NCBI GenBank assembly: GCA_951406725.2
Contig: OX597833.1
Coordinates: 6,696,001-6,760,000, forward strand
DNA from: Octopus vulgaris
Lineage: Eukaryota
DNA length: 64,000 bases
Direction: 5' to 3'
The translations under genes and the position numbers were made by a program. Of the stretch, positions 40,537 through 46,515 are shown piece by piece. How positions within the stretch are numbered: the stretch's first letter is position 1; each line of letters begins with the position of its first letter. Below the pieces are notes generated by a model that was given only the letters and a program-made list of their open reading frames with translations, did no database searches and was not told the DNA's origin.

Positions 40537-42365
40537 AGGTGGCGAGATGGCAGAACTGGTAGCGCTCCGGGCGAAATGCTAAGCAGTATTTAGTCTGCCG
40601 TTACGTTCTGAGTTCAAATTCCGCCGAGGTCGACTTTGCCCTTCATCCTTTCGGGGTCGATTAAATAAGTACCAGTTACGCGCTGGGATCGATATAATCG
40701 ACTTAATCCGTTTGTCTGCCCTTGTTTGTTCCCTCTGTGTTTAGCCCCTTGTGGGTAGTAAAGAAATAGGTATTTCGTCTGCCGTTACGTTCTGAGTTCA
40801 AATTCCGTCGAGATCGACTTTGCCTTTCATCCTTTCGGTGTCGATTAAATAAGTACCAGTTACGCACTGGGGTCGATATAATCGACTTAATTCCTTTGTC
40901 TGTCCTTGTTCGTCCCCTCTGTGTTTAGCCCCTTGTGGGTAGTAAAGAAATAGATATGGGCCGGTTTAAATGCTAAAGGGTGAAATCCGGTTTGCTTCGT
41001 TATACACTAAATTCCATCTGAGCGGAATGAAAAAACCACGTCGAGCCTGGTTCCAATTCAAAAACCGGAGAATGAAAACGAAACTGTGCTGAATATTTCA
41101 TTGAAAGATCGGTGCAACGCCTGAAATTCGAGGGAGGATATCATCGTTCAAGTGAATGACTGGAATTTTATTTTATCGATCCTGGAGGATTAAAAGACAA
41201 AATCGATTGCTGTAGGATTTGAACTCAGAACGCTGAAACAAATATTATGAGTCCTTGTTTTCACCCCACCCCCGCCTCAGATGCTCTAACGATTCTTATT
41301 TCTTTACTGCCCACAAGGGGCTAAACATAGAGGGGACATATAAGGACAGACAAAGGAATTAAGTCGATTACATCGACCCCAGTGCGTAACTGGTACTTAT
41401 TTAATCGACTCCCGATTGGATGAAAAGCAAAGTCGACCACGGCGGAATTTGAACTCAGAACGTAGCGGCAGACGAAATACCTATTTCTTTACTACACACA
41501 AGGGGCAAAACGAAAACATAGAGGGGACAAACAAGGACAGACAAAGGAATTAAGTCGATTACATCGACCCCAGTGCGTAACTGGTACTTATTTAATCGAC
41601 CCCGAAAGGATGAAAGGCAAAGTCGACCTCGGCGGAATTTGAACTCAGAACGCTAAGCATTTCGCCCGGTGTGCTAACGTTTCTGCCAGCTCGCTGCTTG
41701 AGGGCGTGAAACTTAGTCCATCGTCTTAACTACTCGTCTGCGATGACCAAGTCTAAGAATTCGTTCTAGTGTAGGTACAAGGCCTGAAATTTTGAGGGGG
41801 GGGAGACGATTACATTTGTACTTTTATTTTTCATCGACCTCGTAAGAATAAAATGCAAAGTCGGCCTCAGTGGAATTTGAACTCAAAGCATAAAGCCGGA
41901 AGAAATACCGCTAAGCACTTTGTCCGGTACATTAACGATTAACAACCCGAGGCCAGCAATCTAGAAGAGGTGGGGTTAGTCGATACTATTGACCCCAGAA
42001 CTTAACTGGTACATTATTTTATCCACCCTGAAAAGATGAAGAGAAAAGTTGACTTCGGTGGGATTCGAACACAGAACATAAAATCGGAAGAAAAGTGCCA
42101 AGCATTTTGTTCGACGCACTAACGATTCTACCAATCCACAGCAACAACAATAATGATTCTTTCACAAGGCCTGAAATTTCGGTGGGAGGGACTAGTCGAT
42201 CATATCGACCCCAGTGCTCGATTGGTACTTCTTTTATCGATCTCGAAAGGATGAAAAGACACGTCGATCTCGATGGAATTTGAATTCAGACCGTCGTAAA
42301 GACGGACGAAATGCCGCTTAGCATTTTCTCCGGTGCACTTACGATTCTGTCAGCTCACAACCTTC
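40537..42365. mobile_element. Dense SINE family B cluster (+ dimer at 40537-40955; - dimer at 41290-41700; older copies)
   Basis: Repeated diagnostic motifs on both strands. Confidence 0.88.
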
Positions 42366-42397
42366 GCCTTAATAATAAAATGACGATAATTTGTTTC

Positions 42398-42817
42398 GGA
42401 TCTTTTCGGTTTGAACGGCAGTTTTTTTTAATAATTTCCACGTAACTAAACACTTTTAAACTTCGCATACTGGTAGAATGTGTTTATAAAACATCTTTTT
42501 CTCCTGGCTTTATTGAGAAAATTCTATAGTCTGTAAGATATTTGTTGGTTTTTTTTCTTCAATTTCTGCAATTTCAACCAATCAATGACGTCTGTTGAGA
42601 TGAAAACATTCTGTGCCGTATGAATATGTCCCTCGTTTAAGAAACAGATTGGGTTTATTTACATTTCTGAAGAAAAAAAAAGATGCCCTTCCCCCCACCT
42701 ATAACCCTAACCCTAAAACAGATTGAAATGCAATAGATCGATACTTGGCTCATAATTATGGGTGACAATTTCATATGACACCGCTAGAAAAAACTGCCGT
42801 TCAAACCGAAAAGATCC
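42398..42817. mobile_element. 420-bp MITE with 30-bp perfect TIRs and 8-bp TSD (Merlin-like termini)
   Basis: TIR ggatcttttcggtttgaacggcagtttttt at both ends; TSD tttgtttc at 42390-42397 and 42818-42825. Superfamily is inferred only from the GG ends and TSD length. Confidence 0.92.
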
Positions 42818-43264
42818 TTTGTTTCTAACATTGATGCATGTGTAATGTTGGGAAAACAGGGCAAAATCGGTACGAATCTACCCCAGAATGGGGAAAGGAA
42901 AAGTTGTCTCTTGTAAAATTCGAACTTACAACGTAAAAGAGAGAGACTTTACACTATAAACGATCGAGTTTGCCATTCACGAATCTACTTAAATAACATT
43001 CACATCTGTGACAACAACAACAAAACTAACAAAACAATATGTTGAATTTAAATGCAAATTAGAACGATTAGCTCAACCATAATCTGTATATGTCAATATA
43101 CATTTCAACACACATACATATTTGTGTATGTTTGTATGTAGGTGAGAGAGAAAGAGAGAGAGATTAAAAGAAAAATTATAAATAAGAAATAAAATAATAC
43201 AATATCTTCTTTCAAAGTCGCATTCCCTGACAGGGAAATAAACTGAAGGTTTGTGTATGGAATC

Positions 43265-43909
43265 ATGTCAGTTCTTCTAAGAAATCCCACCCTAAATCAT
43301 CGACTGGAAGTGATTGTTCAACCACAATACTTCGAAGAGGCTCTTTCATGTCTTGTGGAATCAATCATATACGTAAGAAGCAAAGGCAAAATGGTACGGG
43401 ATCCAAAACTTGTTTATCGCGAAGACACGATGAAAACGGCCATGAAATACTGCACATCGTTTAATCTGCAATATTCTTGTAATGAATCGAGTGAACTTCA
43501 GAGCAGAATTCTGGACCAAATCCAAAGAATTCGGTGGCTTTGCTGCGTAGAAGGACAAAATGCAAACTGCAGTTTGAGCATGAAATTCTACAAGAATTTC
43601 GTCAGTCCAACTAAATTTAGCAGTGCTCTGCAAATTTTTGAAATATGGCAGATACGCATTCGAATAGTGACTTGCGCAGAGGCGGGACATTCTCAAAACC
43701 AAGTACAGGAAATGGTAAATACTTTAAGGGACTGTATATCTTATATCCACGAATGCAAATTTTGTATTTCCCCTTTATCGAACATTGATACTTTTGAAGA
43801 TTTGGTCAATATTCTTGACTTGGTATCCTTCACTGATGTTTCGTTGTATCATTTCTTCTTTGATCTTAACTTCCAAAATCCTGATGAAGATCAAAGCGTT
43901 TCGCAATAA
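43265..43909 (+). CDS. ATG101: ATG101-like HORMA-domain protein, highly divergent, CDS uninterrupted (214 aa)
   Basis: Only long non-repetitive ORF in the window. First ATG is at 43265 (aatcATG, A at -3). Motif pairs versus human ATG101 as I recall it: LEVIVQPQYFEEAL/LEVSVEGRQVEEAM, RSKGK/RSTGK, YCTSFNLQY/DCDFIDFTY, SSEL/SEEL, LSMKFY/MSLEFY, FEIWQIRIRIV/WEVWTVKVHVV, LVNILD..DVSLY/VDNVFD..DVQPY. Ungapped over about 172 aa with about 39 identities by manual count. The symbol denotes family, not proven orthology. Confidence 0.85.
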   Translation: MSVLLRNPTLNHRLEVIVQPQYFEEALSCLVESIIYVRSKGKMVRDPKLVYREDTMKTAMKYCTSFNLQYSCNESSELQSRILDQIQRIRWLCCVEGQNANCSLSMKFYKNFVSPTKFSSALQIFEIWQIRIRIVTCAEAGHSQNQVQEMVNTLRDCISYIHECKFCISPLSNIDTFEDLVNILDLVSFTDVSLYHFFFDLNFQNPDEDQSVSQ

Positions 43910-43955
43910 AATGATTTCTTTGAAGTTTCGGTTTTTGGTTTTATTATTTTGACAT
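43905..43955 (+). terminator. Candidate polyadenylation signal overlapping the ATG101-like stop codon
   Basis: cAATAAA at 43905-43910 contains the TAA stop and is followed by a T/GT-rich tract (tttctttgaagtttcggtttttggtttt). Confidence 0.4.
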
Positions 43956-44829
43956 GTGGATTTTTCTATGCGGTGGATTTGTAGAATCGCTAGAGCGTCA
44001 GAATAAAACGGCCTTGTGGTTTGTTTTCCGATTCGTTACGTTCTGAGTTCAAATCCTGTAGAGATAACCTATCATCCTTTTGAGATCGCCAAAATAAGTA
44101 CCAGTAAATTTAGTGGGGTCGATGCAATAGGCTTGGCTCTTCCCTTAGAATTACTGGCATTGTAGTAAAATTAGAACTTTTTAATTAATTTATCTAACGG
44201 TTATATTTCAAAAAATGCTTTATTTGTTAAGCTTATAATTATTTTTATGCCATTTTTAATATTCCAAAAGGAAAACGGCCACTTCCAGAATACGATAGAG
44301 TAACTTAATATATTTTGCTACTTTCGTTTCTTTCGCGTTCAAAACTATCCGAAGGTAATATTTATTTTACCTCCCTCCTAGGATCGAAATAATAATGTTT
44401 TAAATCGATCGCACCCTTACACCTAAAATTGCTGTCTGTCTTCTAAATTTAGGAATATCCACTTTTTCTTAAAAAGATTAAATATGACATTTTTGTTGTA
44501 CAATATTGATTTCTAGTCTAGACTTAAGTATTATCGCAAGTTCTAAAACTCCCGGGGCCGGTTACCCAGTATCCACGGCCTCTAAGTGAACGACATCACA
44601 CCATTCACCCTGATCGGAAGACTAATCCGTCGCCAGGTTACTCATTTACAGTCAAGTGAACTGGGGCAATGTGAAATGAAGTGTCTTGCTCAAGAACATA
44701 ACGCACCACTCGGTCTGGGAATGGAAACCAAAATCTTATGTTCGTAAGTGAAATACCCAAACCGTTAGGCCAGGTTCCTTCACAACTTATACCTAAGGTC
44801 ACTAATATATTCTGTGTGCAGGGAAATAC

Positions 44830-45598
44830 TTTTCTACTCTAGGCACAAGGCCTGAAATTTTGGGGGAAGAGGCAGTCGATTAGATCGACCCCAGTGCGTA
44901 ACTGGTACTTAATTTATCGACGCCGAAAGAATGAAAAGCAAAGTCGACCTCGGCGGAATTTGAACTCAGAACGTCAAGTCAGACGAAATACTACTAAGCA
45001 TTTCGCCCGGCGTGCTAACGTTTCTTATTGCCCACAAGGGGTTAAACATAGAGGGGACAAACAAGGACAGACAAAGGGATTAAGTCGATTGCATCGACAC
45101 CAGTGCGTAACTGATACTTATTTAATCGACCCCGAAAGAATGAAAGGCAAAGTCGACCTCGGCGGAATTTGAACTCAGAACGTAGCGGCAGACGAAATAC
45201 CTATTTCTTTACTACCCACAAGGGGCAAAACATAGAGGGGACAAACAAAGGAATTAAGTCGATTACATCGACTCCAGTGCGTAACTGGTACTTATTTAAT
45301 CGACCTCGAAAGAATGAAAGGCAAAGTCGACCTCGGCGGAATTTGAACTCAGAACGTAGCGGCAGACGAAATACCTATTTCTTTACTACCCACAAGGGGC
45401 AAAACATAGAGGGGACAAACAAAGGAATTAAGTCGATTACATCGACTCCAGTGCGTAACTGGTACTTATTTAATCGACCTCGAAAGAATGAAAGGCAAAG
45501 TCGACCTCGGCGGAATTTGAACTCAGAACGTAGCGGTAGACGAAATACCGCAAAATATTTCGCCCGGCGTGCTGGCAATCCTGCCAGCTCGCCGCCCT
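44830..45598 (-). mobile_element. Head-to-tail SINE family B multimer including two identical 174-bp units
   Basis: cgtagc anchors at 45181, 45355 and 45529; complete head at about 45598. Confidence 0.9.
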
Positions 45599-46226
45599 CT
45601 AAGAATAGATATTGATGAGTATGAATCTCTTTTTAAATATAATTCTGGAGAACCAGCTACCTTGTGTTACTCATTTCCACCCTGAATATGTTATAATGTT
45701 TTCAAGGCCTTTAGAGAAGGGCATTTGCTTTGCTGATATAGTTTTGTAAAGTAGTGAACCTTTGCACAAAATAATTTTTTCTCAGTCAAAACTGTAGTAA
45801 ATTATCCTCGTTGTGACCCCTACCCCACCCTGCAACAAAATACATTTTGGTCATTGTTCTACTCACCGTCGCCACCCACACTTATTTCTTTTGTCTATGG
45901 GTTGCATTACACGCGTTACGGTATCTTTTACTCGTGGGTTCAAATCCTGTTGATTCAACTTAACTTTTTGTTTTATCAAAGCTGACAGAATTACCTTTAA
46001 TACACATTACGATTATTGACAGCCAATTATTTGATTTATTAAATAATTTGCAAACAAATCATTGATCTTTGATTCAAATCCTTGCCATTCTCCTTCTCCA
46101 CGAACTAATGATAGTTGTTCAAAAAGTCCGGCAATCAACTTTTACACCCGTTTCACGAGTATAACAATAGTCGCTTTACTAATCCTTTGGTCCATAAAAG
46201 ATTAAAAATTGACTGTTGATAATAGG

Positions 46227-46276
<50 letters not shown>

Positions 46277-46515
46277 TGTGTGTGTGTGTGTGTGTGTTGT
46301 TTCTGGCATTAAACTGTGGCCATGCTGGAGCTCTGCCTTGAAGAGCGAATCGACTCTAGGCTTTTTTTCCCCTTAAAGCCTGGTACTTATTCTGTCTGTT
46401 TCTTTGCCGATCGGCTAAGTTACGGGGACGTAAACACACCAACAACGATTGACAAGAGATGATAGGGAACACACACACGTACACACACACACATATATAT
46501 ATATACATATATATA

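Follow-up and report, generated by a model that had tools for sequence, protein, structure and literature searches.

An intron-less, fast-evolving ATG101 paralog of octopods without the canonical membrane anchors, and its two-domain sister gene

Within a 64,000-nucleotide stretch of the Octopus vulgaris genome (the window: assembly GCA_951406725.2, contig OX597833.1, positions 6,696,001 to 6,760,000 of the forward strand; contig C20 of the 2.8-Gb genome) lies a single-exon coding sequence for an ATG101-like HORMA protein (43265..43909, + strand; P0001). This gene is a true paralog of the ATG101 family, and together with a two-domain sister gene it is a real and undescribed ATG101 variant. Its protein belongs to ATG101 by sequence and fold, but fails three features of a working subunit of the ULK1 complex.

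An earlier note, made from the sequence alone, had read an uninterrupted frame of 214 residues that is about 23% identical to human ATG101, and both readings are borne out. The frame runs from an ATG at 43265 to a TAA at 43907-43909 with no internal stop, and an open frame of such length has a chance of ~4e-7 per frame start at the local base composition. The protein matches Pfam ATG101 (PF07855) at 40.1 bits (E 4e-10), above the curated cut-off of 26.5 bits, and in the PDB it matches four human ATG101 sequences (E ~2e-6). Identity is 45/194 (23%) to a mammalian ATG101 and 21% by structure alignment to the human chains. The predicted structure is an open-Mad2-like HORMA fold with ATG101 as the closest match, in keeping with the earlier expectation that the fold would be retained.

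A family search of the genome found a second ATG101 locus on another contig (C15), so the window gene is not the sole ATG101 of this octopus. This canonical gene (P0027, 218 residues) spreads eight coding exons across 30 kb, with seven introns that are all GT-AG, and O. vulgaris, O. sinensis and O. bimaculoides all have the same protein (CAI9733711.1 = XP_029646448.1 = XP_014777947.1). This protein retains the FHRT and RWLF motifs and the amphipathic C-terminal helix, and carries Lys at the Ser11 position; FHRT, RWLF and this Lys are the proper ancestral states for comparison. None of the seven coding-region introns of the parent is present in the window gene, and the two octopus proteins are 20% identical. 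Going by intron loss alone, the window gene is likely a retrocopy, which agrees with the lineage-specific duplicate or retrogene proposed earlier. No genomic A-run was found 3' of the gene and blastn gave no match to the parent locus; the missing poly(A) remnant and DNA likeness are expected from erosion at the age of the gene, given 20% protein identity.

The copy is old. A profile search of 1.84 billion representative sequences for relatives of the window protein returned 13 proteins, four of which are well separated from the others (E 6e-140 to 1e-21), while canonical ATG101s begin at E 9e-6. These four are an O. sinensis protein (XP_029654060.1, an automatic RefSeq model named 'ATG101-like' that differs from the window protein by one residue), GAB1601838.1 from Argonauta hians (P0004), P0005 (a cluster of four) and a frameshifted ENA record (P0006). 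Another ortholog, P0003 (76% identity), was found by a separate search, and a second profile search with the ortholog alignment added nothing further (5 of 959 candidates). The orthologs score 36-43 bits against Pfam ATG101, and searching the Argonauta protein against the octopus genome gives the window gene as best match, which supports orthology. Orthologs in other cephalopods, which the earlier note had thought worth seeking, are thus intact in related octopods (O. sinensis and A. hians). The gene is common to Octopus and Argonauta, and retroposition likely preceded the split of the two. Between these genera canonical ATG101 is 97.2% identical (0.028 substitutions per site), whereas the paralogs are 35.6% identical (1.45 substitutions per site), a divergence ratio of ~50. 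In P0006, a relative of P0005, the frame shifts after about residue 110-130, through either an assembly error or the death of the copy. Outside the cephalopods, an insect ATG101 (P0008, Diploptera punctata KAJ9577477.1) has also lost the WF-finger Trp and His31 while retaining His26 and the tail; it is possibly an independent derived copy.

A second intron-less gene lies on the same contig, 14.8 Mb from the window gene. It encodes a 387-residue protein with two tandem ATG101-like HORMA domains (Pfam ATG101 27.4 bits) in an intact frame, and the diagnostic His26-to-Glu change is common to the window gene and both tandem domains. The derived domains group as one origin at 94/96 (not starred), and we infer that the two-domain gene is a fused version of the same HORMA dimer.

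Residue comparisons over four ortholog lineages and both tandem domains (six derived domains) indicate that both membrane anchors, the WF-finger Trp and the amphipathic tail, are lost in every ortholog. The earlier readings of SRWPFS as SPTKFS, of LHRS as YVRS and of the terminal segment as NPDEDQSVSQ are correct. At the WF-finger site, the loop KNFVSPTKFSSALQIF (43592..43639, +; pLDDT of the block 58, low) has lost the Trp and the basic run and retains the Phe. The Trp is missing in 4/4 ortholog lineages and both tandem domains, while the Phe persists in three of the four lineages. In place of the C-terminal helix there is a short acidic tail predicted to be disordered (43877..43906, +), with a hydrophobic moment of 0.16 and a net charge of -3; the canonical protein has 0.62 and +2. 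More widely, derived proteins have 0-6 residues past the column of residue 198 (canonical, 20) and tail moments of 0.16-0.29 (canonical, 0.58-0.62); the acidic tail occurs in three of the four compared ortholog lineages, not in P0005. In human ATG101 the WF finger is needed for autophagy and membrane recruitment, and the tail contributes to it.

The dimer face is, on the alignment, remodelled as well, and the rewired interfaces suggested earlier find support at the Trp, at the tail and at the Leu/Phe-His pair. On the helix C face (I158-F166; 43736..43762, +) buried positions are retained, and exposed hydrophobics have become polar (I153 to S159, V156 to H162, M159 to K165), with Asn160 replaced by a fixed Phe166; we take ATG101 positions 152, 153 and 156 to be ATG13 contacts. 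The window protein has 10 cysteines against 1 in the octopus canonical protein, so the earlier remark on their number holds within octopus, but the mammalian protein has 5 and that of Anopheles 8. Across three deep ortholog lineages only C29, C63 and C94 never vary. At the end of helix A (E32-S-I-I-Y36-V37-R38; 43358..43378, +), E32 replaces the invariant His26 in each of the six derived domains. The ATG13-binding Phe/Leu30-His31 position is taken by Y36-V37 and reads Y-V, Y-I, R-I and Y-I in the orthologs and N-M and C-V in the tandem domains. By contrast with these changes, the core persists: the buried pair of a helix A Arg and a core-strand Glu (PMC4657174) corresponds to R38 and E126, both invariant in 16/16 aligned sequences and present in both tandem domains, and the Glu-x-Trp motif E126-I-W128 (43640..43648, +) is likewise invariant in all 16. 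Tyr51 (43415..43417, +) stands at the position of human Tyr45, which lies in the ATG9A-tail groove (PMC9931213), and each of the six derived domains has an aromatic residue there.

An intact frame in a single genome, which the earlier note set against broken transposon frames, counts for little, since unbroken frames of 307 residues (mariner-like) and 366 residues (reverse-transcriptase-like) lie near the tandem gene, both classified by eye. The case for frame preservation comes instead from comparison across species, for which the N-terminal extension of P0003 served as an internal control. This 21-residue in-frame extension aligns, with frameshifts allowed, to the likely 5' untranslated leader of the window gene (43197..43264, +), where two frameshifting indels and one stop fall in 21 pseudo-codons. 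The coding region has no frameshift or stop in 211 codons and one in-frame gap (p 6.5e-4 against the leader). In simulations, a neutral frame stays open over the P0003 distance with a frequency of 0.04 when stops alone are counted and of 0.0015 when one indel is added for every 20 substitutions; over the Argonauta distance the frequency is 2.5e-4. Invariant residues concentrate on family-conserved sites (22/57 vs 26/145, p 0.003). Seven family-conserved sites have a fixed replacement in the orthologs (E13Q, H26E, R137S, N160F, P166S, Q186S, L189H), a pattern that reads as one of changed function. From these alignments, selection appears to preserve the frame and little beyond the HORMA core.

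We favour, tentatively and with somewhat less than even confidence, the reading that the window gene encodes a fast-evolving HORMA pairing module that has left the ULK1 complex and probably now has another HORMA partner, with itself or the two-domain sister as the most likely candidates. The first step can be seen in the genome, where an intron-less copy stands beside an unchanged parent. The anchors and the switching tail were then lost, as the alignment indicates; by human biochemistry, such a protein would neither dock on the phagophore membrane nor undergo the strand-to-helix switch, and would be a fixed-state HORMA. Its dimer face would no longer fit ATG13, and release from this nearly invariant partner would explain the 50-fold speed-up better than decoy duty. 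The fixed new residues and the fused sister would point to pairing within the derived family. Finally, by analogy only, the site of action may be restricted and germ-line, as intron-less, fast and intact copies are typical of germ-line genes.

Several observations weigh against this proposal. Tyr45, the Arg-Ser-x-Gly-Lys motif and Ile152 are retained, which would fit some remaining contact with ATG13 or ATG9. Amino-acid constraint on the window gene is weak: the proportion of differing nonsynonymous sites (pN) against P0003 is 0.119 (60/505) in the coding region and 0.166 (8/48) in the leader, which is no difference (p 0.36), and 48 of 202 columns are invariant across the three deep ortholog lineages where 42 are expected with even rates (p 0.16). 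The single origin of the derived domains depends on long branches in the tree. The fold match is partly circular because the alignments behind both fold predictions contained canonical ATG101.

A dominant-negative decoy, the role the earlier note had offered as an example, is rather unlikely. Such a protein would bind ATG13 (or canonical ATG101) and the ATG9A tail without docking on membranes, and so cap ATG13 and brake the initiation of autophagy, much as p31comet (MAD2L1BP), a HORMA protein, caps Mad2. The likeness to p31comet is that of a derived HORMA, and by this analogy the window protein could act through its dimer face only. What weakens this idea is that every ortholog has a changed ATG13-binding pair (His to Val or Ile), and that mutation of the Leu-His pair to Arg-Arg in human ATG101 abolishes both ATG13 binding and self-dimerisation (10.1101/2025.06.27.661946); the Arg at position 30 in Argonauta is one of these two substitutions. 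Exposed helix C hydrophobics have turned polar, and a decoy whose partner hardly changes would not be expected to diverge to 36% identity between two octopods.

Protein change at close to the pace of the neighbouring leader, with the frame still open, and further duplication into a tandem form, would also suit a conflict-driven gene, under positive selection as bait or partner of a fast-changing ligand (a pathogen effector, a sperm-egg protein or a selfish-element protein). We consider this distinctly unlikely, as only one residue differs between the O. vulgaris genome and O. sinensis, and relaxed constraint accounts for the rate equally well. The weak amino-acid constraint, the frameshifted relative P0006 and the absence of the exact window protein from the protein collection fit a relic under very weak selection, that is, an expressed retrocopy with no specific job, whose frame has stayed open largely through chance or because misfolded product is selected against. 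Yet the frame is open in four lineages more than 1 substitution per site apart, where neutral survival is <=2.5e-4, the constraint lands on HORMA core sites and the 387-codon sister frame is likewise intact, all of which make a relic highly improbable. A tissue-specific working substitute for ATG101 in the ULK1 complex would account for the retained fold and core residues but is hardly credible with both the required WF finger and the contributing tail gone.

Returning to the pairing module, it may belong to something broader. Octopods, and perhaps all coleoids, could possess an undescribed HORMA subfamily that arose when ATG101 was retroposed. One member would have a single domain, and the other would join two in one chain as a naturally occurring, covalent pseudo-dimer. 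Without the membrane anchors and the switching tail, these fixed-state HORMAs would form a signalling or scaffolding system of their own, or would serve as permanent templates or caps and so set the activation rate of canonical ATG101 in one tissue. We regard this wider scheme as possible, though on balance somewhat improbable.

With canonical ATG101 (human C12orf44), the window protein shares PF07855, colinearity over the whole domain, the predicted open-HORMA fold, the core Arg, the Glu-x-Trp motif and the Tyr45 position. It differs in being 20-23% identical, intron-less and ~50-fold faster, in lacking the WF Trp, the amphipathic tail and the Ser203 switch, in its changed Leu/Phe-His pair, and in having a sister with two domains in one chain. 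Vertebrate ATG9B, a tissue-restricted paralog, likewise duplicates a core autophagy gene in one lineage; it can reportedly compensate for ATG9A, whereas the window copy lacks the parts needed to compensate. An engineered human ATG101 (1-198, WF to DD; 10.1101/2025.11.07.687251) is missing the same two anchors, and the folded part of the window protein ends at the same boundary, but the mutant retains the ATG13 interface that is changed in the natural protein.

Database entries for the gene are limited to an automatic model or a hypothetical protein. Our literature search turned up no paper on ATG101 together with octopus and no account of such ATG101 paralogs or retrogenes, nor any paper that evidently describes a tandem-HORMA protein, although subscription journals and supplements may contain such accounts. 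ATG101 has been treated as a single, well-conserved subunit, with little beyond one HORMA domain and two membrane anchors. Here a natural deletion experiment appears to have removed the anchors and the switching tail, rebuilt the dimer face, kept the fold across two octopod superfamilies and doubled the domain in one chain. It suggests that the fold of ATG101 can be put to a different use, and the small group of HORMA families gains a candidate branch. These natural variants could be used to test the HORMA role of ATG101 apart from membrane docking, and the spread of ATG101 activation by dimer templating (10.1101/2025.06.27.661946).

The window gene is likely expressed, although the kind of the sequencing runs is a guess and none of the eight that match it is recorded as RNA. 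Contigs from four of the eight runs that match the gene (X1, X2, X5 and X8) were compared with 40960-46290. No run covers 45766-46290, most of a unique stretch, and for this reason the four do not resemble whole-genome DNA. X1 and X2, which come from one study and are guessed to be RNA, each give one contig (43227-43924 or 43255-43924). Both end at 43924, 14 bases past an AATAAA (43905-43910) that overlaps the stop codon, and carry 21 and 23 extra unaligned letters. The genome has no A-run at 43924 and continues with GT, so splicing is an alternative, but a poly(A) tail explains the extra letters most simply; the AATAAA, a likely poly(A) site near 43924 and then a GT-rich stretch make up a putative 3' end (43905..43924, +). 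X5 contigs, in pieces at a depth of 120-150, extend over 42791..44358 (no strand assigned), a possible longer transcript form. X8 contigs cover parts of the gene region, and those of X1 and X5 part or whole of the leader.

Two sequence differences were seen among these contigs. At 43645, an A-to-G change (Ile127 to Met) in the single low-depth X1 and X2 contigs, not in X5 or X8, is either an allele or A-to-I recoding. A 107-letter X5 contig of depth 2 differs at 7 positions over 43294-43400, through error, another species or an unseen copy.

Elsewhere in the genome, a single locus was found for octopus ATG13. Most of its HORMA domain (human 51-194) lies in one exon of ~575 bases (L013:1282-1857, - strand; G000:C7), with Thr at the Ile131 hot spot. 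HORMAD-, REV7- and MAD2-like exons (labels by eye) proved to be ordinary intron-bounded pieces. Among 138 open reading frames scanned, those of the window matched no Pfam family. Copies of an abundant 170-185-base repeat flank the window gene on both sides (40586-40957, 41291-41701 and 44825-45624) and are very deep in all four runs. A borderline tRNA match at 1805-1879 (-; 29.2 bits, cut-off 29) is probably a tRNA-derived repeat.
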